The notes: a model not told the origin generated them from the sequence alone. A DNA stretch of 64,000 nt from Dehalococcoidia bacterium (GCA_034421515.1 DAOUKH010000003.1:29691-93690), one strand, 5' to 3'; positions 10,458 to 59,075 are shown, numbered from the stretch's first letter. Program-made: numbers and translations.

Positions 10458-10462
10458 CGGCG

Positions 10463-10696
10463 CTACTCCGCCGCGACGATTTGCGTGTTGTGGCGCACCA
10501 CGACCTGCGGGTCGCCGTCCTGGTCGTAGACTGGGTTTCCCGCATCGTCCAGGACGCGGAAGATCCTCGCCACCGTGGTCTTCACGCGGACCGAGCCGCC
10601 GTCGAGGAACTTGTACTCGTTCCAGTCCTCTCGGACGATCTCGAAGTCCTCTTCCCTGGCGTTGACCTCTCTATCGCCGACGCGGATCTTCTTCAT
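10463..10696 (-). CDS. hypothetical small protein (77 aa)
   Basis: ATG at 10696; real ORF at the 3' end of the long frame 10463..11194; no family recognised. Confidence 0.35.
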   Translation of the reverse strand: MKKIRVGDREVNAREEDFEIVREDWNEYKFLDGGSVRVKTTVARIFRVLDDAGNPVYDQDGDPQVVVRHNTQIVAAE

Positions 10697-10746
10697 GGGC
10701 TTCACTGGACTCTCCCTGTTATTGGTGTGGTCCGCGCGGGAACGGT

Positions 10747-11394
10747 CTATTTCAGGCGGGCGTAGTGTCCGAGGTGGCGGAGCTTGAGCGCCTCCGGCGG
10801 CGGCGACATCTTGGCGTTGGCCCTGGAGATGCGGTCGGCTTCGTCGGGGTCGTGCTCCGACTCGTAGACGGCGAGGAAGCGGCCATACTGCTCCACCGGC
10901 TCGCATATCTCGTAGCGGGTCGCGGTGTGGTAGGCGCCGCTCGCCAGGAACTCCGAGATGTGCGTGGTGTTGTACCACTGGTTGAAATCGTCGACCGTCG
11001 CCTCGTCGTTGTAGTCGACGTTGACCAGGAGCACGCTCTTGGTCGGCTTGCCGCCGTGCGGCGAGGCGTGGAGCAAGCGGAAGGTGCCCATCAACGCGAC
11101 ATCCGACGCCGGCCGCGGGGCGTTGGGATCGGCGCTCGCGGCTAGGGCAGTCCGCAGGTCGCCCCACGCGCCCTCGACGTCCTCGCGGGGGCACTCATAC
11201 AGGGCCATGTGCGTCGCGTCCGACGGAGCACGGCCGCCGGTGCGCTCGAACCGAACGCCGGCCGTGAAGATGCCGGGATCGAGCACCTCCGGCATGTGCA
11301 CGTCGATGTACCACGCGCCCCACGCCGCGGCGTCCTCGCCATCGGCCGCGGAGTTCATCACCACGAAGGCTCCCTTGTGCTCACGTCCGTCCAT
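10747..11394 (-). CDS. hypothetical protein
   Basis: 215-aa ORF with codon usage typical of the genome; family not recognised. Confidence 0.4.
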   Translation of the reverse strand: MDGREHKGAFVVMNSAADGEDAAAWGAWYIDVHMPEVLDPGIFTAGVRFERTGGRAPSDATHMALYECPREDVEGAWGDLRTALAASADPNAPRPASDVALMGTFRLLHASPHGGKPTKSVLLVNVDYNDEATVDDFNQWYNTTHISEFLASGAYHTATRYEICEPVEQYGRFLAVYESEHDPDEADRISRANAKMSPPPEALKLRHLGHYARLK

Positions 11395-11418
11395 GCCGTC
11401 TCCTTCTGTCTCTTCTGC

Positions 11419-12612
11419 CTAGCCGCGCGGCAGTCCAAGCCCGCGCGTCGCCACGATGTTGCGCTGCACCTCGGACGTTCCGCCGCGGAGGGTGAACGAG
11501 AGGTCGTTGACGTACTCCGCGGTGGGCCAGCCATCCAGGATGGCGTACTCCGACCCCCGGTGCACCTGCCCGGCAAGCCCCATGATGCGCATCCCCACCT
11601 GCGAGATGCGCTGCGCGATCTCCGTGCCGATGAGCTTGGAGGCCGACGCCTCCTGGTTCGGTATCTTTCCCTGCGACTGCATGAAGCCGACGCGATAGGC
11701 GAGCATCCTGCCCGCGTGGTTGGCGATGGCGACGTCGGCGAGCGCGTTCTTGAGCGCGGCGGGCAGCGCCGAGCCCCCGTTCGCGGCCATCTCGCCGGCG
11801 ATCTCGACCAGCTCGTCGATGGAGCGCTGCCCTGAGGCGAACTTGGCGATCCCCGAACGCTCGAAGTCGAGCGTCGTCGCCGCCACGTACCAGCCGCGGT
11901 TCTCCTCGCCGATCATCATGTGTTTGGGCACGCGCACGTCGTCGAAGAAGACCTGGTTGAAGTAGTGCACGCCGAGGGGGTTGAGGATCGGGCGCACCGT
12001 GATGCCGGGCAGGTCCATGGGGATGAGGAAGACTGAGATGCCGCGGTGCTTCGGCGCTTCAGGGTCGGTGCGGGTGAGGAGGATGCAGCGGTTTGACCGG
12101 TGGGCGCCGCTCGTCCAGATCTTCGAGCCGTTGACCACGTAGTCGTCGCCGTCGGCCACGGCGGCGCACTGCAGCGAGGCCAGGTCCGACCCCGACCCCG
12201 GCTCGCTGAACCCCTGACAGTAGATGTGCTCGCCCGCCCGGATCGGCGGCAGGATCTCCTGCCGCTGCGCCTCCGTGCCGTGGACCATCACCGTCGGCGC
12301 GACGAGGTTGACCCCGGTGGAGAGGTCGCGCTGCGGCGCGCGGTAGTACGACTGCTCCTCGTTGTAGACCATCTGGTCGAGGACGGAGAGGCCCCTGCCG
12401 CCGTACTCCGGGGGCCAGGCCATCGTCAGCCAGCCCCGCTCGACGAGGCGCGCGGTGAAGTCGCGGATCAGGCCCCAGTACTCGTCCTCGAAGTAGGAAT
12501 CGGGATAGACGCCGCGCCACCCGTCGGGCAGGGCCTCGCGGAGGAAGCTCCGCACCTCGAGGCGGAAGTCCTCCTGCTCCTGGGTAAAGCGAAACTCCAT
12601 GCACGGCTCCAA
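11419..12612 (-). CDS. acyl-CoA dehydrogenase family protein
   Basis: 397 aa; ACAD N-terminal, middle and C-terminal domains; C-terminal FTLRGGTSEVQRNIVA motif. Confidence 0.85.
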   Translation of the reverse strand: MEPCMEFRFTQEQEDFRLEVRSFLREALPDGWRGVYPDSYFEDEYWGLIRDFTARLVERGWLTMAWPPEYGGRGLSVLDQMVYNEEQSYYRAPQRDLSTGVNLVAPTVMVHGTEAQRQEILPPIRAGEHIYCQGFSEPGSGSDLASLQCAAVADGDDYVVNGSKIWTSGAHRSNRCILLTRTDPEAPKHRGISVFLIPMDLPGITVRPILNPLGVHYFNQVFFDDVRVPKHMMIGEENRGWYVAATTLDFERSGIAKFASGQRSIDELVEIAGEMAANGGSALPAALKNALADVAIANHAGRMLAYRVGFMQSQGKIPNQEASASKLIGTEIAQRISQVGMRIMGLAGQVHRGSEYAILDGWPTAEYVNDLSFTLRGGTSEVQRNIVATRGLGLPRG

Positions 12613-12895
12613 CGCTCGGGACGGCCCGATTCTAGGCGCGGCGGCGAAAGGCGTAAAGCGGCGGGGGGGACGGGCTGTCGCTGTTGCGGTACGGACGACG
12701 CCCTACTCTGGGGCATGTGTGCAAATTGCAAGTACTACTTTCAATTTGCACGCCGTATGCAGTCGAGGGACGACGGCGCGGCGACAGCGGAGGGCTGCCG
12801 CCGACCTTGACGTCGTGTGTTAGGGTCCTGGACCGTTCGGCGCCCTCCGCCGAACAACCAGGACAAGGGCAACGGATCAGAAAGGAGCACCACAC

Positions 12896-13413: not shown

Positions 13414-15252
13414 ATGGCGCCACGCAAGGCCGACTCGAAAGCATACAGACAAAGGATCCGGCCATTCCTCAAGGAGTGGGAGGAACGCGGCTTCTCTAAA
13501 GAATGGCAGCAGTTCCGAAATTGGTCGGTAGAGCAGGTCTTGTGGGACCAGGAACTGTCTCCGGCAGAAATCGAAGACGCTACTCAAATTGACGGGTCGG
13601 ACGACAAGGGCATCGACGCCTGGTACTTCGATGAGGATGCTGATCCACCGCGCCTTATTCTGATCCAAGCCAAAGATCAGGAGATTGGAACACGTGACTT
13701 CCCTACGCTTCTATCCGGCTTCCGGGACGTGGTCAGTGGACTAGCGAGTGGAAACGCTGCTCTACAAGAAAAGGCTGCCGCATTTCGTTTACAACCGCCC
13801 AAGTTCTTCAACCTCGAATTATATCTTACAACCTCGACCATCGCGCAGGAGGGCTACCGGCCAAAGGAAGACGGAAGTCCTGTACGTACCGAATCGGAAT
13901 TTCTCAAGGTCCTTGACAACAGCTTCGCCAAAGTCTCCTATTATGTCAGAGACATTAAGTATCTTTACGATAAGTTGCAAGTATACAACAACGCACGGAT
14001 TGGATATACCTTCCATGTCGACAAAGACGCCTTCTTCGCGTTTGAAGCAGCCAATCACAAAACTGTTTGCGCTGCTATTGCTGGCGAAGAATTAGCGGAG
14101 TTGTTTTTAAATCATCGGGAGAATCTCTTCCGGGAAAACCCTCGCTACCATCTCCGTTCCGTCACGAACGAAAGGATCAAGGGAGCCCTTCGCGAATCCC
14201 AGCCTGACTTCTTTTTATACAATAATGGGCTCACTTGCGTCGCACGAACAATCAATTTGCCAGATGGCAGTGAAGGAGACAAGGTGCGGATTGAGGTTGA
14301 GGATTTTCAAATAGTCAATGGTTGCCAAACTGTAGCATCAATATGGTCAGTATTCAAGGACAAGACGGCAAACATCAGTAAGGTCAGAGTCTTGGCAAAA
14401 ATTGTCGAAAATTCTACAGCTGGTTCGGATGCAGATGGAATGTCTATGTTGATTGCCGAACGGTCAAACACTCAAAATGCATTGAAGGCCTTCGATTGGA
14501 AGGCAAATGACAAGCGACAGCAGCGTTGGCACGCACTGCTCCAGAGAATGGACCCTCCCTGGTTTTATGAAATCAAGCGGGGTACTTGGGCAGCCCTTCC
14601 AGCATCAGACAAGGCACATTATCGCTCGGGCAAGACTACTCAAAAGGTTAGCATGAAGGAGTTGGGGCAAGCAGGCTATGCGTTCTTGGGTTATCCAGGT
14701 TCCGCGGCGGACAAGCCTCGCAACATCTTCAAAAGTGATCGTGGCGATCCGGAGGACAATCGCGATAACTTATACGACACGATATTCCATGAAGGACTTT
14801 CTGGATCGCAATTGTTGTTGCCTCATCTGGTCTTCTTGGAAGCCGACGAAATAGCGAAAAGGAAACCGACTCTCAAGCTTTCAGATGCCAAAGATGACGT
14901 ATTCCCAAGCAAGTCACTTCGTTTCCCGGCCGTGGCCATAGTTGGGCATATGCTATCCGCGCTCGCGGAGCAGAAGCAGGGCTATCTTTCTCCCGCGCAC
15001 TCCGACGAGTTGCTTCGCAATAGGACTTGGCTTCCAGAGTTCGCAAAGACAGCGTTTGACGTGCTGGAGCCTAAACTGGCTGAGGTGTCCCGAGCACCAG
15101 GTTCGGGTGGCCCTAGGCGCATCGTCAGGGGCGACAATTGGATGGGCGATGCTCCCGCGAATGCACTCAATCAGATTCGTGCTCAGCTCAGGACTGAACA
15201 GCGTCTCGGTGCTAGTGGCGAGGGAACCCTTTCCGGGTCACTGCCCTTCTAG
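13414..15252 (+). CDS. AIPR-family abortive-infection (phage resistance) protein
   Basis: 612 aa, about 50% GC against a 70% GC background; QIVNGCQT motif and overall layout of Abi-like AIPR proteins. Confidence 0.6.
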   Translation: MAPRKADSKAYRQRIRPFLKEWEERGFSKEWQQFRNWSVEQVLWDQELSPAEIEDATQIDGSDDKGIDAWYFDEDADPPRLILIQAKDQEIGTRDFPTLLSGFRDVVSGLASGNAALQEKAAAFRLQPPKFFNLELYLTTSTIAQEGYRPKEDGSPVRTESEFLKVLDNSFAKVSYYVRDIKYLYDKLQVYNNARIGYTFHVDKDAFFAFEAANHKTVCAAIAGEELAELFLNHRENLFRENPRYHLRSVTNERIKGALRESQPDFFLYNNGLTCVARTINLPDGSEGDKVRIEVEDFQIVNGCQTVASIWSVFKDKTANISKVRVLAKIVENSTAGSDADGMSMLIAERSNTQNALKAFDWKANDKRQQRWHALLQRMDPPWFYEIKRGTWAALPASDKAHYRSGKTTQKVSMKELGQAGYAFLGYPGSAADKPRNIFKSDRGDPEDNRDNLYDTIFHEGLSGSQLLLPHLVFLEADEIAKRKPTLKLSDAKDDVFPSKSLRFPAVAIVGHMLSALAEQKQGYLSPAHSDELLRNRTWLPEFAKTAFDVLEPKLAEVSRAPGSGGPRRIVRGDNWMGDAPANALNQIRAQLRTEQRLGASGEGTLSGSLPF

Positions 15253-16114: not shown

Positions 16115-16731
16115 GTGGGCCTCCGGCGAGTCGGTTCGGCCTCCGCGGCCTGCACCGCGTCGTCGAGAAGACGGGCGGCGCGGTCTTCGAGGGCGAGTGC
16201 TTGGGCGGCGGCACGGCCCTGGGGACTCATCTTTCGCCAGGTGCTGACAAGCACCTCGACCATGCGCGCGTCGTCGTCGAGCTGGCCGGCGAAGTCGGCG
16301 AGCTGGGTCTCCATGAAGACGAGGCAGAGGGCGTCCTCCATGGCCTGGGCGTCGGGGTCGCGGCCGAGGCCGCGCTTGCGCACGAGGTCCTGGGCTCGCT
16401 TGACCTCGGCGGCGCCGTAGCCGGCATCGGCCATGATCTCGCCGAGCGCGTCGGCGTGGAAGCGCTGGAGGGCGGTGCGCCAGCGGAGGTAGCCCTCGCG
16501 GCCGGCGGGGTAGGCATCGCGGGGATGCTCCCAGCGCCGGATGTGGTGGGCGCGGGCGGCGAGCAGGAGCAACTCGCCCGCGTCGGGGCGCAGCGCGCTC
16601 ACCCAGCGGGTCATCATCTCGGCGTGGGCGGCTTCCTTGGGACGGGGAACGCCTTCAACGGTCAGCCTGTTGGGATCGGCGGCGTTGGCGTCGTCGATGC
16701 GGCGGATGGCTTCCTCGAAGCGGGCGGTCAT
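16111..16731 (-). CDS. DUF4202 domain protein
   Basis: Start set at internal ATG (MTARFEEAIRRIDDANAADPN...LAARAHHIRRW...YLRWRTALQRFHA); the upstream part of ORF 16111..17007 overlaps hemH and is Arg/Pro-rich shadow. Confidence 0.5.
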   Translation of the reverse strand: MTARFEEAIRRIDDANAADPNRLTVEGVPRPKEAAHAEMMTRWVSALRPDAGELLLLAARAHHIRRWEHPRDAYPAGREGYLRWRTALQRFHADALGEIMADAGYGAAEVKRAQDLVRKRGLGRDPDAQAMEDALCLVFMETQLADFAGQLDDDARMVEVLVSTWRKMSPQGRAAAQALALEDRAARLLDDAVQAAEAEPTRRRPT

Positions 16732-17696
16732 GGCGCGGATGGGAGGGAGAGTTGCTCCCAGCCGGCGGACTGGACTTCGCGGGCGACGACCGCGGCGAGG
16801 GCGTCGATGAAGGGGGGCCAGGCGTTGAAGGTCTCGATGCGGGAGAGGACCAGCCCGGCCTCGTTCGCTTGCTCCGCCGCCGCCACGTCGATGTCGTAGA
16901 GGACTTCGAGGTGGTCGGAGAGGAACTGGACAGGGACGATGAGGACGCGGCCATGGCCGGCGTCGCGGAGGCCGGGGAAGAGGTCCTTGATGTCGGGCTT
17001 GAGCCACTCGACAGGCTGGTGTCCCGCGCTCTGGTAGGCCAAGCGCCAGCGGTCGCCGGCGAGCCCGCAGCGCTCGGCGGCGAGGCGGGCCGTCTCTTCG
17101 AGCATGCTGATGTAGCCGGGCTCGCGGTCGACGACCGCCTTCGGCATGCTGTGAGCGGTCATCAGGACGGGAACGCAGTCTCGTTCTTCGGGAGGCAGGC
17201 GTTCCACCGCCTGCTCAATGCGGCGCGCCAGAGCGTCGATAAAGGCGGGCAGCGTGTGCCACGAGCCGGCGACACGAACCTCGCAGCCGGCGGGCAGCGA
17301 CGCCTTGGCGGCGTCGACGGCGGTGAGATAGCCGCCCATGATGATCGGCGAGTACTGGGGCGAGAGGATGAGGCAGACCATGTGCCGCGCCCCCTCAGCG
17401 GCGAGCGATTCGAGCGCGTCGGCTATGAAGGGCGGCGCGTTGCGCATGCCGATGGCGACGCGGTAGGCCCCCTCCTCGCGCCCGTTGAGGCGTGCTTCGA
17501 GCGCCTCGGCCTGCTCGCCGGTGATGCGGGTGAGCGGCGACCCGCCGATGACGCGGTAGCGCCGCTGCATCTCCTCGACGACCTCGGCGGGCGCGGGGGC
17601 GCCGCGGATGCGTTCGAGGTAGGCGGGCACGTCGGCGATGGCGGCCGCCGAGCCGAAGCTCATGAGCACGACGCCGACCGGCGCGCCGCTCGTCAC
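16728..17696 (-). CDS. hemH: ferrochelatase
   Basis: GVVLMSFGSAA N-terminus, conserved His/Glu regions (LMTAHSMP); GTG start overlaps the hemE stop as GTGA; stop overlaps the downstream start as ATGA. Confidence 0.8.
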   Translation of the reverse strand: MTSGAPVGVVLMSFGSAAAIADVPAYLERIRGAPAPAEVVEEMQRRYRVIGGSPLTRITGEQAEALEARLNGREEGAYRVAIGMRNAPPFIADALESLAAEGARHMVCLILSPQYSPIIMGGYLTAVDAAKASLPAGCEVRVAGSWHTLPAFIDALARRIEQAVERLPPEERDCVPVLMTAHSMPKAVVDREPGYISMLEETARLAAERCGLAGDRWRLAYQSAGHQPVEWLKPDIKDLFPGLRDAGHGRVLIVPVQFLSDHLEVLYDIDVAAAEQANEAGLVLSRIETFNAWPPFIDALAAVVAREVQSAGWEQLSLPSAP

Positions 17697-18742
17697 CGGC
17701 GGCTCTCCTCGTGCACCAAGTCGACGATGCGCTTGAGGTCTTCGGGGTTGGTGTCGGGTAGGACGCCGTGGCCAAGGTTGAAGACGTGGCCGGGGCGGTT
17801 TTCGGCGCGGCGCAGGATGTCGCGGACGCCGTCGCGAATGGTCTCCCACGGCGCGAGGAGGAGGACGGGGTCGAGGTTGCCCTGGATGCCCTTGTCGTGG
17901 CCGATCCGGGCCCAGGCGGCGTCGAGGTCGACGCGCCAGTCGAGGCTCATGATGTCGCTGCCGGCGTCGCGCATCAAGTCGAGCAGCGACGCGTTCCCGG
18001 TGCCGAAGTGGATCGTTGGGATGCCGGTCTCGCGGACGGCGTCGAAGATGCGGGTCACGTAGGGCAGCACCGACGTCCGGTACTGGCCGGGACCGAGGAC
18101 GCCGACCCAGCTATCGAAAATCTGGATGATCTCAGCGCCGGCGGCGACCTGCTCGCGGAGGTAGCGGATGACGACCTCGGTGGTCTTGTCCATGAGCCTT
18201 GCCCAGAGATCGGGGCGGGCGAGCATGAGGCCCTTGGCCTTGTCGTAGTTGCGGGAGGGGCGGCCCTCGATCATGTAGCAGGCTAGGGTGAAGGGCGAGC
18301 CGGAGAAGCCGACGAGGGCGGCTCGGCCGTCGAGCTGCCGCCCGATGAGGCGGATGGCGTCGAAGAGGTAGGGGGTGGCCTCGGCTGCGTCGATGACGCG
18401 GATGGCGTCGATCTGGGCCTCGGTGCGTATGGGGTCGTGGATGATGGGGCCGGTGTCGGGCTCGATGTGGAAGGGGACGCCCATGCCCTCGAGCGGGAGC
18501 ATGATGTCGGCGAACATGACCGCCGCGTCGACGCCAAGCCGGTCGACGGGCAACAGCGTGACCTCGGCGCAGAGCTCGGGGGTCTTGGCGATGGTCAGGA
18601 TCTCGTACTTCTTGCGGAGGTCGCGGTACTCCTGGAAGCAGCGCCCCGCCTGGCGCATGAACCACACCGGGGTGGCGTCGACCTCGCGGAGGCGGCAGGC
18701 GTCGAGCATGCGCCGCGCCCCGGCCTTGGAATCCGATGTCAT
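17693..18742 (-). CDS. hemE: uroporphyrinogen decarboxylase
   Basis: PVWFMRQAGR signature; about 350 aa; start at MTSDSKAGARRML. Confidence 0.85.
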   Translation of the reverse strand: MTSDSKAGARRMLDACRLREVDATPVWFMRQAGRCFQEYRDLRKKYEILTIAKTPELCAEVTLLPVDRLGVDAAVMFADIMLPLEGMGVPFHIEPDTGPIIHDPIRTEAQIDAIRVIDAAEATPYLFDAIRLIGRQLDGRAALVGFSGSPFTLACYMIEGRPSRNYDKAKGLMLARPDLWARLMDKTTEVVIRYLREQVAAGAEIIQIFDSWVGVLGPGQYRTSVLPYVTRIFDAVRETGIPTIHFGTGNASLLDLMRDAGSDIMSLDWRVDLDAAWARIGHDKGIQGNLDPVLLLAPWETIRDGVRDILRRAENRPGHVFNLGHGVLPDTNPEDLKRIVDLVHEESRR

Positions 18743-18874
18743 CGTCGCGCCCCCATGTTCAAGACCGGCCGCAGGCCGCCGCCCATTGTAGTGCACTGGC
18801 GGGCGCGCGGCGCGGTGGGGGAATCGACCACCGTTTGCACGATAACGATACCGCTGGTAGTATCACCTCGCAGC

Positions 18875-19123
18875 ATGTCACAGAAGGAAAAACGGCTGGC
18901 GAGGGCGAAGGAGAACCCGCAGGGATTCCGATTCGAGGAACTCCTACAGCTTTACAAGGATTGGGGATTCGTAGTCGAGCCAAGCGGGAGGGGAAGCCAC
19001 TACAAGGCACAGCTGCCGGGAACCCCCGTTAGGACTAGGGTTCTCACGCGCTCAAACCCCGTGAAAAGCATCTACGTGAAGCAGGCGGTAGAGGCCATTG
19101 AAGAGGCTCAGGCGCTGTCTTGA
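18875..19123 (+). CDS. hicA: type II toxin-antitoxin system HicA-family toxin
   Basis: 82 aa; MSQKEKRLARAKENPQGFRFEELLQLYKDWGFVVEPSGRGSHYK... Confidence 0.65.
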   Translation: MSQKEKRLARAKENPQGFRFEELLQLYKDWGFVVEPSGRGSHYKAQLPGTPVRTRVLTRSNPVKSIYVKQAVEAIEEAQALS

Positions 19124-19143
19124 GGCGGGAAGGACCTTCGACG

Positions 19144-19569
19144 ATGAGCGGTGATCTTGCGCATTACGCGGCACTGCGTTATCCGGTGCTCCTGACGCGG
19201 GTATCGGACAACGACGAGGATTACTGGGCGGCTGAGTTCCCAGACTTGCCGGGCTGCCTCGCGGATGGACGGACCCCAGACGAGGCCGTGGAGAACGCGG
19301 AGGCCGCCAAGGGCATCTGGATTGAAGCCGAGCTCGAAGCAGGACGAGCGGTCCCAGAACCGGCAGGCGACCGCGACTATAGCGGCCGGTTTGTCGTGCG
19401 GATTCCCCGCTCGCTCCATCGCCGCCTTGCCCTCACTGCACAGAGGGAAGGCGTGAGCTTGAATCAGCAGGTCGTGTCGAGACTCGCGGAAACGACCGCC
19501 GCTCCGGAATCTCCACGGAAGTCCGCTGCGCCGCGACGGTACCCAGGGAGAACGGCGAAGTCGGCGTAG
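19144..19569 (+). CDS. hicB: HicB-family antitoxin (UPF0150 N-domain plus C-terminal ribbon-helix-helix)
   Basis: YPVLLTRVSDNDEDYWAAEFPDLPGCLADGRTPDEAVENAEAA motif; C-terminal RIPRSLHRRLALTAQREGVSLNQQVVSRL. Confidence 0.7.
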   Translation: MSGDLAHYAALRYPVLLTRVSDNDEDYWAAEFPDLPGCLADGRTPDEAVENAEAAKGIWIEAELEAGRAVPEPAGDRDYSGRFVVRIPRSLHRRLALTAQREGVSLNQQVVSRLAETTAAPESPRKSAAPRRYPGRTAKSA

Positions 19570-19629
19570 CCGGGTCTCAGGCCGTACTGGCGGCCACTTT
19601 ACGCCCGCCCGCGTGGTATCCTGCGCGCC

Positions 19630-21315
19630 ATGCATGACCTGCTGATTCGCAACGCGCGGATCGTGGATGGGAGCGGCGGGCCGTCGCGGTATGGCGCCGT
19701 GGCCGTCTCCGATGGGCGCGTGACCGAGACCGGCGAGGGCAACGGGCTGGCGCGGCGCGTCATCGACGCCGAGGGGCTCGTCGTCGCGCCGGGTTTCATC
19801 GACATCCACACCCACTACGACGCGCAGCTTGCCTGGGACCCGCTCTGCACGCCGTCGTGCTACCACGGCACGACGAGCATCGTGATGAGCAACTGCGGCT
19901 ACGGCATGGCGCCGGTGCGCCCCGAGGACCGCGACTACACGATGGGGACGTTCAGCTGCGTCGAGGGCGTTTCCAAAGAGACGCTGATCAACGGGCTGCC
20001 CTGGGAGTGGGAGACGCTGCCGGAGTATCTGGCCTGGCTGGAGGAGCGCGGGCTGGGGATCAACGTCGCGGCGCAGGTGGGGCACTCGGCGGTGCGCCGC
20101 TGGGTGCTGGGGCCGGAGGCCCACGAGCGCGAGGCCACCCCCGACGAGATCGCGACGATGCGCGCCATGGTGCGCGACGGCATGGACGCCGGGGCCGTCG
20201 GCTTCACCACGTCGCGCGTCGCGCACCAGAAGGGCGAGTTCGGCGAGCCGATCCCCTCCTTCGCGGCGCACGAAGACGAGCTGTTCGAGCTCGCCGGCGT
20301 CCTCCGCGACCTCGGGCGGGGCATCATCGGGATCAATCCGCGGACGAAGTCGCTGGAGTTCGTCCAAGAGGACAAGGACCAGCTCTACCAGCTCGCGGCG
20401 CGGACGGGGCGGCCGGTCAACTGGAACGAGTTCAACCAGCGGGACATCTATCCCGGCCAGTGGCGGGTGCTCCTCGACTACATGGAGCACGCCCAACAGC
20501 TCGGGGCGATGGTCTACGCGGTGATGCGCTGCCAGCGCATGGACATGCACTTCAACCTGCGCGACACGCACGCGTTCAACCGATCGAAGCTGTGGCGCGA
20601 CTTCATGGCACGGTCGACGGAGACGAAGCTCCGCGACCTCGAAGACGGGGACTTCCGCCGCCGGCTGCTCGAAGAGATGCAGCCGCGCTTCTCGCAGGGC
20701 GGGGCCGGGTTCGAGCGCCTCGCCATCGCCATCGCGGCCACCGACCGCCACCGCGGGTTCGACGGCCGCCTGGTGCGGGACGTAGCGGCCGAGACCGGCG
20801 AGGACGCCGGCGAGCTCTTCTTCCGCATCGCCCGCGAGGAGCAGCTCGAGACCGAGTTCGCCTACCACGGCGTCACCAACGGCGACGACGACGCGGTGCG
20901 GGCGATGATCGAGAGCCCGGGGACGATCATCGGCATCTCCGACGCGGGCGCGCACCTCCACACCATGTCCGGCGTCGACTACCCGACGTACTTCCTGGGC
21001 CGCTGGATACGAGAGAAGCAGGCGATGTCCTTGGAAGCGGGCGTCGCGGCGCTCACCTCGGCGCCGGCCCGGTTAGCCGGACTCGAGGGGCGCGGCGTCA
21101 TCGAGCCAGGCGCCGCCGCCGACCTCTGCATCTTCGACCCCGACACCATCGGGCCGCGGTCCATGGAGATCTGGAACGACTTGCCGGGCGGCGAGGGGCG
21201 GCACGTGAAGCGGGCCGCCGGCGTGCGCGAGGTCATCGTCAACGGCGAGGCGCTGGTCCAAGACGGCGAGCCGACCGGGGAGCTGCCGGGCCGCGTGCTG
21301 CGTCACGGACGCTAG
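19630..21315 (+). CDS. N-acyl-D-amino-acid deacylase (D-aminoacylase) family amidohydrolase
   Basis: 561 aa; GFIDIHTHYD metal-binding motif and D-aminoacylase-like layout. Confidence 0.8.
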   Translation: MHDLLIRNARIVDGSGGPSRYGAVAVSDGRVTETGEGNGLARRVIDAEGLVVAPGFIDIHTHYDAQLAWDPLCTPSCYHGTTSIVMSNCGYGMAPVRPEDRDYTMGTFSCVEGVSKETLINGLPWEWETLPEYLAWLEERGLGINVAAQVGHSAVRRWVLGPEAHEREATPDEIATMRAMVRDGMDAGAVGFTTSRVAHQKGEFGEPIPSFAAHEDELFELAGVLRDLGRGIIGINPRTKSLEFVQEDKDQLYQLAARTGRPVNWNEFNQRDIYPGQWRVLLDYMEHAQQLGAMVYAVMRCQRMDMHFNLRDTHAFNRSKLWRDFMARSTETKLRDLEDGDFRRRLLEEMQPRFSQGGAGFERLAIAIAATDRHRGFDGRLVRDVAAETGEDAGELFFRIAREEQLETEFAYHGVTNGDDDAVRAMIESPGTIIGISDAGAHLHTMSGVDYPTYFLGRWIREKQAMSLEAGVAALTSAPARLAGLEGRGVIEPGAAADLCIFDPDTIGPRSMEIWNDLPGGEGRHVKRAAGVREVIVNGEALVQDGEPTGELPGRVLRHGR

Positions 21316-40884: not shown

Positions 40885-41070
40885 GCGGGAGCCATCCCCC
40901 TCCCGTAGGGGCACCTCTTGTGGGTGCCCGTCCCCTCCCCGGTAGGGGCGAGTCGCGACTCGCCCGCTCCCCAACACCCACCGCCCCCTCTGGGGGAGAC
41001 TGAGAGAGGGCACGCGCCGCAGGCGCGTCGGCGGTGTGGCGCCGGGAGGTCCTACCCCCTCCCCCCACCC
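40885..41070. repeat. composite palindromic intergenic repeat (copy downstream of gap)
   Basis: gtaggggcaNCtcttgtgNgtgccc hairpin module plus ccccctctgggggagactgagagagggcacgcgccgcaggcgcg module. Confidence 0.6.
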
Positions 41071-45734: not shown

Positions 45735-45995
45735 AACGCCCTCCCCCTGTAGGGGCGATTCACGAATCGCCCGTCCCCTCTGGGCGAACACCTTAAGCCT
45801 CCCTCCCTCTGGGAGGGACTGAGGGCGGGCACGCGCCTGGCCCGTCGGCGGGCCGGTCTCCCCCCTGTCCCGCACCTTAAGCCTCTCCCCCTCTGGGGGA
45901 GACTGAGAGAGGGCGCGCGCCGCCAGGCGCGCGGCGCCCAAAGGGCGCCCTCCGGCGTCCCCTCCCCACCCAAAAGAAGAGCGCCCCTTCCGGGG
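45735..45995. repeat. composite palindromic intergenic repeat, two tandem units (between purF and oppF-like)
   Basis: ccttaagcctccctccctctgggagggactgagggcgggcacgcgcc... followed by ccttaagcctctccccctctgggggagactgagagagggcgcgcgccgccaggcgcg. Confidence 0.65.
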
Positions 45996-48122: not shown

Positions 48123-48243
48123 TTCCGACCTCCTCGCCTGGGCCTAGCGTAATCTGAGGGCGGACGCGTCCGGCGGCCGCCCGGCCCACCTTACCTTATA
48201 TCATGTTCGCGCGTAACGTGCTCGCCGTGTGGAAGTCGAGAAG

Positions 48244-48325
48244 TGGGGAAGAGGAGACTCGAACTCCTACGCCTTTCGGCACATGATCCTAAATCATGCT
48301 CGTCTGCCAATTCCGACACTTCCCC
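48244..48325 (-). tRNA. tRNA-Leu (UAG)
   Basis: Minus strand: GGGGAAG...anticodon loop uuUAGga...long variable arm...CTTCCCC-A; no encoded CCA. Confidence 0.8.
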
Positions 48326-48362
48326 ATCGCGGGCCCCGGCCCAGCGTCCGAGCCTGGCGCGA

Positions 48363-48438
48363 TGGTGAGCCGCACAGGACTCGAACCTGTAACCTACTGA
48401 TTAAGAGTCAGTTGCTCTACCAATTGAGCTAGCGGCCC
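48363..48438 (-). tRNA. tRNA-Lys (CUU)
   Basis: Minus strand: GGGCCGCTAGCTCAATTGGTAGAGCAACTGACTCTTAATCAGTAGGTTACAGGTTCGAGTCCTGTGCGGCTCACCA. Confidence 0.85.
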
Positions 48439-48519: not shown

Positions 48520-48845
48520 TCATTTCCGGCGCCTCGCCGTAGGGGCAACCCTCGTAGACTGGCCGAACACCTTAAGCCTCCCTCCCTCCGGGAGGGACTG
48601 AGGGAGGGCACGGGCCGGGAGGTCTCACCCCTTCTCCCCACGGGAGAAGGTTGGGATGAGGGGCCCCGCGTCAACCACCGGCGCCCTAGCAAAGAACGCC
48701 GACTCGGAGCGCCATCCTCGGGCCTGTCTCCCCTCTGGCGCCCCCTTAAACCTCTCCCCCGCTGGGGGAGACTGAGAGAGGGCACGCGCCGCAGGCGCGT
48801 CGGAGGGCGGGGGCCGGGAGGACGGTATGCTTTGGGCGAGCCCCA
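48520..48845. repeat. composite palindromic intergenic repeat, two units (downstream of tRNA-Lys)
   Basis: Same modules as above: gtaggggcaaccctcgtag..., ccttaagcctccctccctccgggagggactgagggagggcacg..., ccttaaacctctcccccgctgggggagactgagagagggcacgcgccgcaggcgcg. Confidence 0.65.
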
Positions 48846-48884: not shown

Positions 48885-50426
48885 GTGAACAGCGCCTTTT
48901 CTCAGCGATGCCAGGCGGCGCTCACCCATCCGGTGACGCTGGCCGCAATCGCAGTGCTGGTGGTGAACGACCTGGCGCTGAAGGCGCTGTGGCCGTCGCC
49001 TTGGACGACGGGCAAGCTGAGCGACCTGGCGTGGGTCGTCTTCGCATCGCCCTTGCTGGCCTTCCTGCTGTCGTTGGCTACACCCAGGAATGCTTACGCG
49101 GAGCGGGCGGTCTTCGCGGCCGCCTACATAGGGCTCCCGCTCCTGTACGCCGCGTTCAACACCCTGGAACCGGTGCATGACTGGATCTCGAGCGGGCTGG
49201 GGCTGCTGGCGGGGAGGCCGACCGGAGGGACGCCGGACCCGACCGACTCGCTGGTCATTCCCCTAGGCTTGGCGGCGGCCCTCTGGGTCTGGCGCCGCGG
49301 CGCCGCCAATCAGAGCGACGTACGCCAGCGGCTCGTCTTGCTCACTGCCGGCTTCGCCGCGTTCGCGTCGGTGGCGAGCGGCCCACCTCCTCATGAGCTT
49401 GGGGTCGTAGACGTGGGCGTGGGAGAAGACGGTGTCCTCATCGCGCGCAGTGTGGACGGTCACGAGGGCCTCGTAGAACCGGAGGGTGGCCAGCACTACA
49501 TGAGCACCGACGGCGGTTCCTCATGGGGCGATGGGGAATGGGTCGACCGAGAGATAGCGGGGGCTATCGCGTGGGGCGGGCAGACCGCGGAAACTCCGCG
49601 AGGGACCTATTCCGTCAATACGACGGGTATCGCCCTGACTAGCGATGGCACGTCGGAAACCGTCTATTCCACGGAGTTCCTGGGAGACCCTGCCAACCGG
49701 TTGCAGCATGAAGTAGCCACCAAACGATTTAGTGAGCGGATGCTAAGGTTTTCCCCGCGAAGCATCGTCTATCACGAAGCAAGCGGCAACGTGATAGCGA
49801 CCTTGGGGCTCCAGGGCGTGGTTGTGGGTGACGCCGACGAGGTCTGGCAGAGGATAGCGGTGGGGCGCTACTCGCCGACGGACTTTTCGGCGAGCGGCAA
49901 GCTGCGGACCATCTTTTCCCGCGCCGCGTTCTGGTTCACCGGACTCGCGGTCGCCGCCTCCTTGACGGCGTCGGCATTGGCATTGGCGCGCGTGGCGCCG
50001 AACTGGGCGCTGGGAAGAATCCTCTTCGCCATCGCCGCCGCCACAGCAGCCATTGTCGCCTTGCTTCTCCTCTTCTCCACCGAGACCAGCACGCCGATCG
50101 GCGAGGGGGTCCTCAGGGAACCGGACATCCTGTTCACTTTTGGAGCGGTGATGATGTTGCTCTTCTCGCTGTGGTCGGCGCTGGCCGTCGCGGCGTCGAT
50201 CTTGCCGCGGCGACAGTATCTTCTCGCGGCGTTCGTCGCTCTGCTGGCGATGATGGCGCTCTTTGCGGTGTCCTTCTTGATTGCCATCGCGCAGGAGGTG
50301 CGTACCGCCAAATTGTTCGCCTTACTCCTTGTCTTCCTGGCCGCGGTCTCGTTCTACGTCTACCTTCGGAGGAAGCTGTCGGAGGAGCAACCGGCCTTGC
50401 CGGAGGGAGGGCCGCCCAGAGGGTGA
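48885..50426 (+). CDS. hypothetical polytopic membrane protein
   Basis: 513 aa; several TM helices at both ends and a central soluble region; lies between the tRNA-Lys and the terminase module. Confidence 0.45.
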   Translation: MNSAFSQRCQAALTHPVTLAAIAVLVVNDLALKALWPSPWTTGKLSDLAWVVFASPLLAFLLSLATPRNAYAERAVFAAAYIGLPLLYAAFNTLEPVHDWISSGLGLLAGRPTGGTPDPTDSLVIPLGLAAALWVWRRGAANQSDVRQRLVLLTAGFAAFASVASGPPPHELGVVDVGVGEDGVLIARSVDGHEGLVEPEGGQHYMSTDGGSSWGDGEWVDREIAGAIAWGGQTAETPRGTYSVNTTGIALTSDGTSETVYSTEFLGDPANRLQHEVATKRFSERMLRFSPRSIVYHEASGNVIATLGLQGVVVGDADEVWQRIAVGRYSPTDFSASGKLRTIFSRAAFWFTGLAVAASLTASALALARVAPNWALGRILFAIAAATAAIVALLLLFSTETSTPIGEGVLREPDILFTFGAVMMLLFSLWSALAVAASILPRRQYLLAAFVALLAMMALFAVSFLIAIAQEVRTAKLFALLLVFLAAVSFYVYLRRKLSEEQPALPEGGPPRG

Positions 50427-50499
50427 GGCGCGACCTTGCCGCCTTCGGCCCCGTTGGCCTTGCTTCGCCCCAAAATGGATTTTCGGCCGAAATGAGCTA

Positions 50500-50550
50500 T
50501 TGACAGCCTTGTCAAGGGGGTTTATCGTTAGAGTACAGAACGTACGTTCT
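50500..50550 (+). promoter_or_regulatory. sigma70-like promoter (TTGACA-N18-TATCGT) overlapped by a Cheo-type LexA box AGAACGTACGTTCT
   Basis: TTGACAgcctTGTCAA at 50500-50515; -10 candidates TATCGT (50524-29) or TAGAGT (50529-34); perfect 14-bp palindrome AGAACGTACGTTCT at 50537-50550 matches the Gram-positive/actinobacterial SOS box GAAC-N4-GTTC. Confidence 0.45.
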
Positions 50551-50593
50551 CTAGCGGGGCGGCCCAAAACGGCCCTCCGCGCACCCGCCGAAG

Positions 50594-50630
50594 ACCCGCT
50601 CCCCGCGAGCGGGTCTCGCGGTTTAAGGGG
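50594..50630 (+). terminator. GC-rich hairpin followed by a T-tract; candidate intrinsic terminator for the 48885..50426 gene
   Basis: GACCCGCTCG-CCC-CGAGCGGGTC stem followed by tcgcggttt. Confidence 0.3.
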
Positions 50631-50636
50631 CCTGCG

Positions 50637-50712
50637 GGTCGTGAGCTTCGTGAGCGTTCGTACAGGTAGGGCGTCGTGAGCGTCGTGAGCGCCATGAGCG
50701 TTCGTGAGCGCT
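50637..50712 (+). repeat. array of six CGTGAGCG-like direct repeats at roughly 9-10 bp spacing (iteron-like)
   Basis: cgtgagct/cgtgagcg/cgtgagcg/cgtgagcg/catgagcg/cgtgagcg between the promoter and the terminase small-subunit RBS. Confidence 0.4.
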
Positions 50713-50755
50713 TTTGACATGCGCGCGCCGCGAAGGCGCGGGAGGAGGGAGTCGA

Positions 50756-51565
50756 ATGGCAAGGGGTAAGAAGGGGCCGGCGCGGACGTCGAGGCGGCGG
50801 CGAGAGATGGAGGAACGGCAGCGGGTGTTTCTGGACGCGTTGCGGCGGACCGGGGATGCGGAGGCGGCAAGGGCGTCGATCGATGTCGGCGAGTCGACAG
50901 TGCGGCGATGGAGGGGGAAGGACGATGTGTTCCGAGCCGCGTACAAGGAGGCGCAGGGAGCCAAGGGGGCGGCTCCGGAGGGGCGGCCGAAATTCACGGG
51001 GCGGAAGCGGGTGTTCCTGGATGCATTCGAGCGGGCGGGGGTAGTAGCGGCGGCGCTGCGCGCGGCGGAGGCGACGGCGAAGGATCTGCGTCGATGGGTG
51101 CGGGATGACGCGGAGTTTCTGGACTCATACGTGGAGGCAAGGGGGCGCATCCGGGCGCGGGCCGACGAGGAGACGGAGCGACGGATCGCGGCAGGGGAGC
51201 AGGTCTCGGCAGCAGGGCGGAAGCGGGTCTTCTTGAAGCATCTGGCGAGCGTGGGCACGACGACGGGAGGCTGCGAGGCAGCGGGGATCACCTTGAAGAC
51301 GCTGAAGGAGTGGCTGGAGAGGGATGAGTTCGCGGAGGCGTTCGCGGAGGCGAAGCAGCGTTTCCGGGACCACATCGAGGAAGCGATCGTGCAGCGGATC
51401 GATGAAGGGAAGAACGGAGGGCTGCTCCAATTCAAGGCGCGGGCGGAGCTTCCTGAAAAGTACGGGAAGGGGGAAAAGACCCCGCCGAAGGAGCAGGCCG
51501 GCGTGACCTGGGAGGATATCGAGCGGGCAGCGAGGGAGCCATATGACGCGACAGGAGCGTGTTAA
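50756..51565 (+). CDS. phage terminase small subunit-like protein (three HTH-like repeats)
   Basis: GGAGGAGGGA RBS upstream; three copies of R(Q/K)RVFLDAL-x-GxxxxAxxxxxVxxxTxxRWRxxDxxFxxAYxEA, the motif of small-terminase DNA-binding domains. Confidence 0.55.
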   Translation: MARGKKGPARTSRRRREMEERQRVFLDALRRTGDAEAARASIDVGESTVRRWRGKDDVFRAAYKEAQGAKGAAPEGRPKFTGRKRVFLDAFERAGVVAAALRAAEATAKDLRRWVRDDAEFLDSYVEARGRIRARADEETERRIAAGEQVSAAGRKRVFLKHLASVGTTTGGCEAAGITLKTLKEWLERDEFAEAFAEAKQRFRDHIEEAIVQRIDEGKNGGLLQFKARAELPEKYGKGEKTPPKEQAGVTWEDIERAAREPYDATGAC

Positions 51566-52931
51566 GTTTGAGCGGCGGTGTCAAGACGACCCCGCGTTCT
51601 TCTTTCGGCACGTGCTCGGCTGGACGCCGTGGGCGAAGCAGGCGGAGATCGCGCGGGCGGTGGCGGAAGCGGTGCGCGGCGCGGGCCCGCGGCGGGTGGC
51701 GGTGCGGAGCGGGAACGGCGTGGGGAAGACGGCACTGGCGGCGCGGCTGATGCTGTGGGCGCTGCAGAGCCACCCCTCGAGCGTGGTGGTGACGACGGCG
51801 CCGACGCAGCGTCAGGTGACGGAGCTGCTGTGGCGGGAGGCGCGGTCGGCGTACTACCGGGCGCGGGTGCCACTGGGCGGGGTCTTCTACGAGGGGCAGC
51901 CGCGGTGGGACTTCGGGCCGCGGCGGTACGCGATCGGGGTGAGCCCGGAGCACACCCGGCCGGAGGCGTTCCAGGGCTTCCACGCCGACCTGATCGTGTT
52001 CCTGGTCGACGAGGCAAGCGGGGTGCCGGCGGCGCACTGGGAGGCGATCAAGGGGTCGCTGCTGGCGGGGAACGCGGCAGTGCTGGCGATCGGGAACCCG
52101 ACGCGGCTGGAGGGGGAGTTCTACGACGCCTTCCACGGCCAGGCTGCCCTGTGGCGGCGGCTGCACATCTCGGCGTTCGACACGCCGAACCTGACGGGCG
52201 GCGACGTGCCGGGCCTGGTGACACCGGCGGCGGTGGCCGAGGCGGCGCGGGACTGGGGCGAGGAGAGTCCGCTCTATCAGATCCGGGTGCTGGGCGAATT
52301 TCCCTCGGCGGCGAGCCATCAGCTCATCCGCTTCGAGTGGACCGAGCAGGCGGCGGAGGCCCCGTCGGCGGGCGGCGGCTTCGCCCTCGGCGTCGACGTG
52401 GCGCGGAGCGGCGAGGACGAGACGGCGGCGGTGCTGCTGGAAGGCAACCGCCTGGCGCGCCTGCAGCGCTGGCTGGGACAGAACACGATGCGGACCGTCG
52501 CCGAGATCAAGGGCCTCGTAGACGAGCTCGGCGAGGTGGCGGTCGCGGTGGACGACGGCGGGGTCGGCGGCGGCGTGGTCGACCGGCTGCGGGAGCTGGA
52601 CGTGCGGGTCTACGCGGTGAAGTTCGGGGCGGCGGCGGATGGGCGGTCGTCGGTGCATTTCAAGAACAAGCTCGCCGAGATGTACTGGCGGCTGCGCGAG
52701 CGCCTGGAGGCTGGGACGCTGCGGCTGCCGCAGGAAGCGTCGTTGACGGGAGGCGGCAAGCTCGCGGCGCAACTGGCGCAGATCGAGTGGGAAGTCGAGA
52801 GCGACCGGGTGATCCGGGTCCACAAGCGGGGTCTGTCGGGCCACGCGCCGAGCCCGGACATCGCGGACGCGCTCGCCTTGGCGCTGGAGGCGCAGGCGCG
52901 GTCGGAGCGCGGCGCGGGCGTGTGGTTTTAG
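51543..52931 (+). CDS. phage terminase large subunit
   Basis: Walker A GNGVGKT, Walker B LVFLVDEAS; C-terminal RNase-H-like nuclease region with acidic residues; overlaps the small-subunit gene. Confidence 0.8.
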   Translation: MTRQERVKFERRCQDDPAFFFRHVLGWTPWAKQAEIARAVAEAVRGAGPRRVAVRSGNGVGKTALAARLMLWALQSHPSSVVVTTAPTQRQVTELLWREARSAYYRARVPLGGVFYEGQPRWDFGPRRYAIGVSPEHTRPEAFQGFHADLIVFLVDEASGVPAAHWEAIKGSLLAGNAAVLAIGNPTRLEGEFYDAFHGQAALWRRLHISAFDTPNLTGGDVPGLVTPAAVAEAARDWGEESPLYQIRVLGEFPSAASHQLIRFEWTEQAAEAPSAGGGFALGVDVARSGEDETAAVLLEGNRLARLQRWLGQNTMRTVAEIKGLVDELGEVAVAVDDGGVGGGVVDRLRELDVRVYAVKFGAAADGRSSVHFKNKLAEMYWRLRERLEAGTLRLPQEASLTGGGKLAAQLAQIEWEVESDRVIRVHKRGLSGHAPSPDIADALALALEAQARSERGAGVWF

Positions 52932-52944
52932 GCGCCCTGCGGGC

Positions 52945-53020
52945 GCCCGCGCGCCTGTCGGCGCGCGCCCTCTCTCTAATCTCCCCCAGAGGGGGAGAGG
53001 TTTAAGAAGGGAGAAGAGGT
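52945..53020. repeat. palindromic intergenic repeat unit (after terminase large subunit)
   Basis: gccctctctctaatctcccccagagggggagaggtttaagaag, reverse orientation of the ctctgggggagactgagagagggc module. Confidence 0.55.
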
Positions 53021-58924: not shown

Positions 58925-59075
58925 TTGTGGGGGAGCGGGCGCGTCGCGACGCGCCCCTACAGGGAAGGGGCACCCCTCCCGGCCCCCGCCCTCCGACGCG
59001 CCTGCGGCGCGTGCCCTCTCTCAGTCTCCCCCAGAGGGGGAGAGGTTAAGGTGCCACCTGCGGGGGCGGTTAGGC
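58925..59075. repeat. composite palindromic intergenic repeat (between the cupin gene and the UGSC locus)
   Basis: cctacagggaaggggcaccc... plus cgcctgcggcgcgtgccctctctcagtctcccccagagggggagaggttaagg. Confidence 0.6.

Follow-up and report, generated by a model that had tools for sequence, protein, structure and literature searches.

What is an intact pair of terminase genes doing on a bacterial chromosome when no other part of a phage head or tail lies near it? The question is raised by a stretch of 64,000 nucleotides from a Dehalococcoidia bacterium (GCA_034421515.1 DAOUKH010000003.1:29691-93690; this whole stretch is called the window, 68% GC), in which the genes of a small (terS) and a large (terL) terminase subunit stand behind a promoter and a palindrome of the LexA type, GAAC-N4-GTTC. 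An earlier interpretation made from the DNA alone (the sequence-only reading) had noted that no portal, capsid or tail genes follow the pair, and tblastn extends that absence to the full 64 kb. Here, we report that terS-terL is probably still functional and maintained by selection, as one fragment of an HK97-type head-and-tail gene set that derives from an ancient phage, presumably repressed by LexA and domesticated in the manner of a gene transfer agent (GTA). The set as a whole is best read, from the distribution and divergence of its genes, as a fixed, vertically inherited part of Dehalococcoidia chromosomes.

The two genes themselves give the first part of the answer. They had been described as intact, and they are: both open reading frames (ORFs) are whole, and all catalytic residues are kept. 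The two overlap by 23 nt (51543-51565), with terS immediately upstream of terL and translationally coupled to it. TerL matches phrog_2 at 1.9e-38 and carries the Walker A (GNGVGKT) and Walker B (VDEAS) motifs as well as the nuclease motifs DVAR, DDGGVGGG and SPDIAD, as the sequence-only reading had recognized; residues G61, K62, T63, D156, E157, D285, D337, D439 and D442 are invariant in 23 homologues with identities down to 41%. The profile of TerL homologues aligns to the solved TerL ATPase domain 4zni and matches the TerL nuclease domains 8dkr (1.6e-12), Sf6 gp2, 5tge and 5m1f. For TerS, the profile phrog_4044 aligns in three stretches (2.5e-23), and Pfam Sf6_terminase (PF20901) scores 28.4 bits against a cut-off of 27. 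The three TerS repeats of ~65-70 amino acids align with one another, i.e., there are three helix-turn-helix (HTH) copies rather than the usual one, in agreement with the earlier description. The AlphaFold model of TerS is helical with three equal four-helix units (mean predicted local distance difference test score, pLDDT, 72), and a C-terminal segment that is conserved among homologues is modeled at low confidence; Foldseek with this model against PDB gave no significant match (best E = 0.39), the small terminases of Sf6 and PaP3 being among the weak ones. In relatives, TerS has one, two, or three HTH repeats, the three-repeat form being rare (11 protein clusters), and it is only 39-45% identical between genomes whose TerL proteins are 88-94% identical; the segment exchanged extends from the leader to around codon 14 in terL. 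Within the gene set, it is terS that evolves fast. In one 718-amino acid protein (P0022; metagenome-assembled genome Chloroflexi HY261_03285), an HTH-like N-terminal region is fused to TerL, with large low-complexity insertions.

The window terL is under purifying selection. Its ratio of nonsynonymous to synonymous substitution (dN/dS) is 0.18-0.20 against the related loci L001 and L002, and 0.27 between L001 and L002, which keep a portal gene adjacent (loci compared: L001, L002, L003, L004, and L062). Such a low ratio indicates that terS-terL is maintained, with its partners most likely residing elsewhere in the genome of the window. One may instead take the pair as a non-functional leftover of a degraded prophage, the structural genes deleted and the promoter and palindrome surviving as relics; the lack of portal and capsid genes in the 64 kb, a repeat element placed exactly at the break (see below) and the fragmented or missing cluster genes of some relatives would all be in line with that. 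However, both ORFs are intact with complete catalytic residues, dN/dS is ~0.2 and as low as in genomes with complete clusters, the promoter cassette is conserved base for base, intact orphan pairs with their cassettes recur in three genomic contexts, and the closest relative carries the terminase partners elsewhere. We consider a dead remnant quite unlikely, and the decaying prophage leftover that the sequence-only reading had listed among its options does not go with purifying selection and clade-wide conservation.

The second part of the answer comes from relatives. TerL has more than 2,250 homologues in databases, many of them on megabase contigs, and a scan of one genome per species confirmed more than 417 TerL loci, the best 80 nearly all on Dehalococcoidia chromosomes. 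Among isolated phages, the best TerL match has at most 37% identity; in 2.9 million virome contigs, the best match reaches 44% and the remainder at most 40%. An HK97-type portal gene lies directly after terL in 55 of 84 loci. In the clade of the window, terS and terL come first, then portal, S78 protease and major capsid, then head-tail adaptor, tail terminator, in some cases a PIN/RHH toxin-antitoxin pair, and major tail protein, followed by four genes without recognizable family. The ancestral site is that of the window, with purF, two oligopeptide ATP-binding cassette (ABC) ATPase genes and tRNAs; the place before the promoter that a 513-amino acid membrane-protein ORF takes in the window is held by an oppositely oriented tautomerase gene in L081, L089, and L090, and in L081 the tRNA genes adjoin the cluster. 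In the larger sister clade, the position of terS is taken by a protein of ~70 amino acids without HTH, a four-cysteine zinc ribbon (CPRC...LEKADPxAxTCYRCRxCGHIFSPR), possibly a regulator or else a small terminase subunit of another kind.

The closest non-identical relative (TerL 94% identity) is particularly instructive. There, terS-terL sits at one end of a 526-kb scaffold, and the genes of portal, protease, capsid, adaptor, terminator, major tail protein and more lie ~280 kb away; the cassette is duplicated, each of the two loci standing behind the same arrangement of promoter, box, and hairpins. The detached portal locus is found again in another genome, L171. This split layout means that the genes lacking from the window can lie elsewhere in its genome, and of the alternatives offered by the sequence-only reading it is the GTA-like unit with dispersed parts that is favored, not the phage-inducible chromosomal island (PICI) or the decaying prophage. 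Orphan terS-terL pairs with intact genes and cassettes occur in three contexts, i.e., the window and L084; L085; and L175, with polA and ileS behind the pair. The break in the window falls at a repetitive extragenic palindromic (REP)-like repeat, and the same repeat parts genes of the L081 cluster; no sequence common to the region upstream of portal in contiguous clusters was found that would explain an excision of terS-terL by recombination.

Do TerS and TerL need capsids at all? The pair might have been exapted as a DNA translocase-nuclease that the SOS response induces, serving for instance in repair, in the processing of chromosomes or in defense against phages, with the portal dispensable. 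Purifying selection on orphan pairs that own a LexA-type cassette would fit, as would a fast-evolving terS of variable repeat number facing changing DNA targets. Against this, the position of portal directly behind terL in most genomes, the co-divergence of portal with TerL (r = 0.91-0.92), and the detached portal-to-tail locus with the same cassette argue for joint use, and no terminase is known to us that functions in the absence of a portal. This use seems improbable to us.

What would tie the separated pieces together is the promoter region. The sequence-only reading had described a near-consensus -35 inside an inverted repeat, a -10 and a perfect GAAC-N4-GTTC palindrome, and all of these are found as it said. 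TTGACA-17-TATCGT (10 of 12 consensus matches) is the single promoter-like site that a promoter scan finds between 50300 and 53100; its -35 is contained in the inverted repeat TTGACAgcctTGTCAA (50500-50515), followed by an invariant GGGGGTTTATCGTTA. The palindrome AGAACGTACGTTCT begins 9 nt past the -10 and thus covers the expected transcription start, at the same position in all cassettes. It has no second perfect copy of its 14 nt in the window and one copy with a single mismatch at 19031; GAAC-N4-GTTC occurs twice in the 64 kb, the other copy (9681) being intragenic within long ORFs. Among the 28 distinct loci in which terS or the zinc-ribbon gene precedes terL in the two closest clades, spanning 52-72% GC, 27 have a perfect GAAC-N4-GTTC just past the -10 of a TTGAC-type promoter, and the box extends to AGAAC...GTTCT or TTAGAAC...GTTCTAA in most loci; elsewhere in the 1.63 Mb of loci, the motif appears about once per 63 kb, i.e., at chance level. 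The detached portal-to-tail loci of L087 and L171 have their own box. So do the displaced protease-capsid blocks, perfect in L012 and L024 and with one mismatch in L082 and L008.

The palindrome is thus supported as a conserved operator of the LexA type, and the earlier proposal of a LexA-type box agrees with its place at the transcription start and its conservation in the promoters of relatives. Dehalococcoides LexA reportedly bound GAAC-N4-GTTC in a study of 2002. The same motif is that of LexA in Firmicutes and Actinobacteria (PMC4951493), and variants of it are given for Chloroflexi in that source, which cites Fernandez de Henestrosa 2002 on Dehalococcoides. Alternatively, the palindrome could serve as operator of another repressor, CI-like from a phage or a host regulator acting on GAAC/GTTC half-sites, in which case the set would not be under SOS control. 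No lexA, recA or uvrA gene, whose promoter would calibrate the motif, lies in the DNA examined. Moreover, the -35 palindrome TTGACA-N3/4-TGTCAA and the invariant GGGGGTTTATCGTTA exceed what a sigma-70 promoter needs, which suggests a second DNA-binding factor; the spacer of this palindrome varies and its arms are constant (window 50500-50536 and 13 other cassettes, alignment A8). Yet the box matches the LexA consensus exactly including the spacing, the extended palindrome is kept in most loci, the Chloroflexi variants reported in PMC4951493 point the same way, and no repressor gene travels with the cluster as a private operator would need. Another repressor is therefore unlikely in our view, and LexA probably remains the better candidate. 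Further promoter-like GAAC-N4-GTTC boxes precede small ORFs in L026 (20217, 20968) and L010 (17054) and possibly mark additional regulon members; the ORF behind one of the L026 boxes encodes a 125-amino acid protein with an internal duplication (L026 20223-20600).

The third part of the answer concerns how long the set has been on the chromosome. Synteny of the flanking host genes holds in genomes that range from 52 to 64% GC, with an epimerase gene upstream and a Na/H exchanger gene directly after portal, and in L024 the exchanger is found between portal and protease-capsid, where L082 has six further host genes. Over a range of 52-72%, the GC content of the cluster goes with that of its flanks (r = 0.97). 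Pairwise identities of TerL and portal correlate with those of adjacent host genes (r = 0.81-0.93) and are at a similar absolute level, ~70% versus 73% and 61%. Neither at the window locus, which has no integrase, rep or repressor gene, nor adjoining the clusters of relatives, for which integrase, replication, lysogeny-control, and repressor genes were sought in the loci searched and several cluster genes have no family match, is there a sign of such functions. Synteny, internal host genes, GC, and co-divergence together indicate a domesticated element and not a circulating prophage or satellite. A mobile family, i.e., PICI-like or capsid-forming PICI (cf-PICI)-like islands or temperate phages that enter the same sites and are not inherited with the host, would be suggested by a gene content like the packaging and head module of cf-PICIs, by tRNAs 2 kb upstream and beside the L081 cluster, and by terS modules apparently exchanged between genomes. 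It is very improbable in view of flanks without integrase, replication or repressor genes and without att repeats, host genes at conserved positions inside the cluster, ameliorated GC with co-divergence with host genes, and the absence of close relatives from the 2.9 million virome contigs. The PICI-type hijacker of the sequence-only reading is contradicted by the same syntenic flanks, co-divergence, and internal host genes. In L087 and L171, the gene of an XerC/D-type integrase is found ~6 kb ahead of the cassette of the detached portal.

The transcribed leader belongs to the conserved cassette as well. All 14 clade-A cassettes have in common the box, two leader hairpins and a near-invariant stretch from -35 to -10 that contains both TTGACA-N3/4-TGTCAA and GGGGGTTTATCGTTA, a signature that can be written TTGACA...GAACGTACGTTC. 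Hairpin 2 itself spans 50593-50615 and a short T-containing tail follows. It is predicted in six of the six loci of alignment A3, with one stem pair preserved despite changes on both sides, and is found in 14 of 14 cassettes; in L003 and L062 its stems are entirely different and end in canonical T-runs. The protease leaders of L082 and L008 likewise hold a hairpin and T-run. Such conserved terminator-like hairpins suggest an attenuation or antitermination step. Rfam at gathering thresholds found only tRNAs in the window, and when the window leader and the protease leader of L082 were searched permissively, the Rfam matches (miRNA, snoRNA, and sRNA) did not exceed chance level. The displaced protease-capsid leaders (L082 19421-19561; L008 20836-21047; L012 17075-17127; L024 14629-14696) share the element AGGGACTGACCCGG; in L082 and L008 it contributes to a hairpin with 7-8 T behind it, a counterpart of the terminator-like hairpin in the window leader.

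Behind the hairpins lies a tandem array of 9 nt with 8.1 copies according to Tandem Repeats Finder (TRF). The sequence-only reading had seen six repeats at helical spacing; six octamers of the CGTGAGCG type are indeed there, at 50640, 50649, 50675, 50684, 50693, and 50703 (four exact, two with one mismatch), and their steps are actually 9, 26, 9, 9, and 10 nt. Exact CGTGAGCG copies number six in the 64 kb, four of them inside the array. The array is part of one cassette variant, present before the three-repeat terS in the window, L084, L089, and L173, and a homologous array also precedes the detached portal in L087 and L171; leaders of two-repeat terS have none. Its unit varies by lineage (GTCGTGAGC, TCGTGAACGT, GCGTTTTGA) around a conserved core CGTACAGGTAGGGCG between two blocks. 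Iterons, i.e., direct repeats of ~17-22 bp beside a rep gene or origin, had been proposed earlier and were rejected: the unit here measures 9-10 nt, the leader that contains it is transcribed, a rep gene is absent, and in relatives the array stands before portal genes too. The array could be pac-like, as in pac sites blocks of repeats surround the point of cleavage; this is only a resemblance, and slippage alone could also maintain the array. The motif pair GCGCGCCGCGAAGGCGCG/GGGAGGAGGGAG occurs only in array-bearing cassettes (the window, L084, L087/L088, L089, and L171), and the ribosome-binding site upstream of terS reads GGAGG.

Table 1. Positions of the features discussed, in window coordinates except where a related locus is named
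Feature	Position	Strand	Remarks
513-amino acid multi-pass membrane protein ORF	48885-50426	+	between tRNAs and cassette; no family match
Sigma-70-type promoter TTGACA-17-TATCGT	50500..50528	+	promoter scan; -35 at 50500, -10 at 50528; -35/-10 region nearly invariant in 14 cassettes from 14 loci
LexA-type operator AGAACGTACGTTCT (GAAC-N4-GTTC)	50537..50550	.	perfect 14-nt palindrome; same promoter position in relatives
Leader hairpin 1 (GCGGGGCGGCC-caaaac-GGCCCTCCGC)	50554..50580	+	minimum free energy and centroid fold; equivalent visible in other clade-A cassettes
Leader hairpin 2 (GACCCGCTC-cccgc-GAGCGGGTC) with T-containing tail	50593..50626	+	terminator-like, U-tract weak in window
Degenerate 9-nt tandem array (unit GTCGTGAGC, ~8 copies), two blocks around core CGTACAGGTAGGGCGT (50659-50674)	50638..50710	+	TRF
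Small hairpin GCGCGCCGCGAAGGCGCG, then ribosome-binding site GGGAGGAGGGAG	50723..50755	+	just before terS start codon; confined to array-bearing cassettes
terS, small terminase subunit, 269 amino acids	50756..51565	+	three tandem HTH-type repeats and conserved C-terminal segment (LLQFKARAELPEKYG...TWEDIER)
terL, large terminase subunit, 462 amino acids	51543..52931	+	ATPase and RNase-H-like nuclease motifs
REP-like two-hairpin dispersed repeat	52926..53012	.	87 nt, directly after terL stop, where relatives continue with portal
Zinc-ribbon gene just upstream of terL	L083 9790-9996; L006-L014, L017, L019, L020, L024, L026, L082

The surroundings of the pair may be described briefly. The genes of tRNA-Leu and tRNA-Lys (48243-48438, minus strand) had been seen as adjoining the module and as integration targets; they lie 2 kb upstream of it behind the 513-amino acid ORF, their 3' ends point away from the module, and neither att repeats nor an integrase accompany them. 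A search for direct repeats of the tRNA ends between 48200 and 54100 returned short chance matches only, and with both tRNAs oriented away, integration at an att/tRNA site was rejected. Two paralogues of the 513-amino acid membrane protein (45% identity) lie inside the L089 cluster (16271-19853, minus strand), between the tail terminator and major tail protein genes. The palindromic repeat that had been noted after terL is present and proves to belong to a dispersed REP-like element, of which the window has at least five copies (40984-41027, 45876-45934, 48745-48799, 52926-53012, and 58997-59047). This element consists of two adjacent hairpins, CGCGCCTGCGGCGCG and CTCTCCCCCAGAGGGGGAGAG, with a TTTAAG end, and occupies many intergenic gaps; in L081, its copies (11542-11826, 14543-14616, and 16169-16231) separate cluster genes. 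The gene past the REP-like element in the window encodes a luciferase-like monooxygenase and is convergent. Genes of Y1 transposases of the REP-associated type are found nearby in L090 (5350-6063) and L173 (12357-12971), in the latter exactly between terL and portal. Toxin-antitoxin pairs of the PIN/RHH and FitA-like kinds lie inside the cluster in L081 (17850-18502), L090 (15156-15808 and 20423-21105), and L087 (15637-15885 and 20157-20569).

Several points weigh against a maintained, LexA-repressed, GTA-like set. With the proteins of the closest relatives as tblastn queries, no portal, protease, capsid or tail gene is detected in the whole 64 kb, and a complete loss of the terminase partners from the genome of the window is possible. 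No tape measure, tail fiber, holin or endolysin gene is recognized, and the genes past the major tail protein match nothing. Gene calls are fragmented in terL of L089, portal of L171 and L173, and capsid of L171, and L090 lacks the S78 protease between portal and capsid (10001-12821) in an otherwise complete cluster; such fragmented or missing genes could be assembly errors or decay. As to the regulation, the exception among the 28 loci, L004, has a degenerate GTAC-N8-GTCT, and a more distant clade (37-38% identity) is mostly without the box. No lexA homologue was found by tblastn in the window and L001-L084 (~1.6 Mb), with E. coli and B. subtilis LexA as queries, and a repressor other than LexA may recognize a similar half-site. 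One further control step is implied by the terminator-like hairpin in the leader.

With these points in mind, the maintained GTA-like set would work as follows. In the lineage of the window, the set is broken repeatedly by rearrangements, with REP-like repeats and Y1 transposases at the junctions, and every detached piece keeps its own copy of the cassette, i.e., a strong sigma-70-type promoter, an operator over the start, and a two-hairpin leader. LexA on the operators would keep all pieces silent; upon DNA damage, active RecA would trigger the self-cleavage of LexA, and all cassettes would fire together. TerS and TerL from the window locus would then act on procapsids made by a portal/capsid locus elsewhere in the genome, and DNA would be packaged into phage-like particles in the style of GTAs or of PBSX-like defective phages. 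Two of the traits expected of a GTA are in keeping with this: vertical inheritance and purifying selection across the host clade are indicated by synteny, co-divergence, GC, and dN/dS, and a host-type LexA operator is found on each fragment together with split loci, which points to common regulation.

A wider proposal, which we put forward tentatively and hold to be considerably less probable, is that many Dehalococcoidia including marine SAR202 own an SOS-triggered packaging machine run by the host, an independent invention of the GTA principle. The dispersed pieces would form a LexA regulon and the 9-10-nt arrays with their core would be chromosomal pac sites, so that damage would lead to headfuls of neighboring host DNA being packaged in situ and exported, similar to lateral transduction under the control of the host. 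SAR202 is among the most abundant bacterial groups of the ocean. One cultured SAR202 strain, Ca. Lucifugimonas marina JH545 (L013; NZ_CP046146.1 2647942-2669252), has the box, the zinc-ribbon gene, terL, and portal. Growth inhibition and death of JH545 under continuous light have been described without explanation (PMC10444878), and speculatively, induction of the system could underlie this death. Locus L082 (GCA_017114025.1, labeled Dehalococcoides mccartyi) has 51% GC, and its promoter and leader are near-identical to those of the SAR202 loci L008 and L013; the species label is doubtful, and we do not claim the set for Dehalococcoides proper.

How often phage particles become domesticated, and how they are then controlled, are open questions on which this case bears. 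Known GTAs come from a handful of lineages, and the literature searched holds no description of such a system in Chloroflexota; if our reading is true, hundreds of Dehalococcoidia genomes including SAR202 would represent an independent case of a domesticated particle in that phylum. A host DNA-damage operator copied onto every fragment would make the control logic unusually readable, and the operator layout may serve as a marker for finding the remaining parts, such as tail tip and lysis genes, as members of the same regulon. JH545 as a cultured carrier makes the prediction directly testable. If particles are made, organisms that cycle ocean carbon and organisms that dechlorinate would have a damage-induced route to gene exchange or cell death.

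How does the set compare with known systems? The cf-PICIs carry their own terS, terL, portal, protease, capsid, and connector genes; unlike the set described here, which is inherited vertically by all indications, they are mobile islands with integrase, regulators and a replication module. Membership among PICIs or cf-PICIs was rejected, as integrase, att repeats, rep and repressor genes are absent from the window locus and from the loci of relatives. The pac sites of SPP1 and P1 are similar to the array in lying beside or upstream of terS and in having two blocks of short direct repeats, about one helical turn in period, around a conserved core; the array here is in contrast within a transcribed leader and also stands before portal without terS, and the likeness is one of layout alone.

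The GTAs of the RcGTA type in Alphaproteobacteria are similar in the HK97-type order of terS, terL, portal, protease, capsid, adaptor, and tail genes, in that no phage replication or lysogeny genes are seen beside the clusters searched here, in vertical inheritance with host-like divergence across a large clade, and in genes spread over several loci that need co-regulation by the host; the RcGTA genome is described as multilocus in PMC5026251. The Dehalococcoidia set differs in that its terL clade is unrelated and has no close phage or virome relatives, in that a LexA-type operator apparently sits on every piece, as opposed to CtrA/GafA control there, and in that the zinc-ribbon protein replaces TerS in most Dehalococcoidia genomes.

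PBSX of Bacillus subtilis and VSH-1 of Brachyspira are DNA-damage-inducible, defective phage-like particles that package host DNA. The set shares with them chromosomally fixed, phage-like structural genes, and damage induction, which is theirs, would be a further likeness. PBSX is one contiguous element with its own Xre repressor and is not known outside a narrow host group, unlike the dispersed genes here, which occur in many Dehalococcoidia genomes with a LexA-type operator on each piece in the two closest clades. VSH-1 is dealt with in the context of carbadox in PMC5550749. Finally, CTXphi and GIL01 of Bacillus thuringiensis offer the parallel of a host LexA operator on a phage-derived promoter and an SOS switch-on, which in our case is a prediction. 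CTXphi and GIL01 are replicating phages, in which LexA operators control promoters of the early or regulatory kind; the operator here belongs, in contrast, to late-type operons for structure and packaging in an element that is not mobile, and every fragment has received a copy of it.

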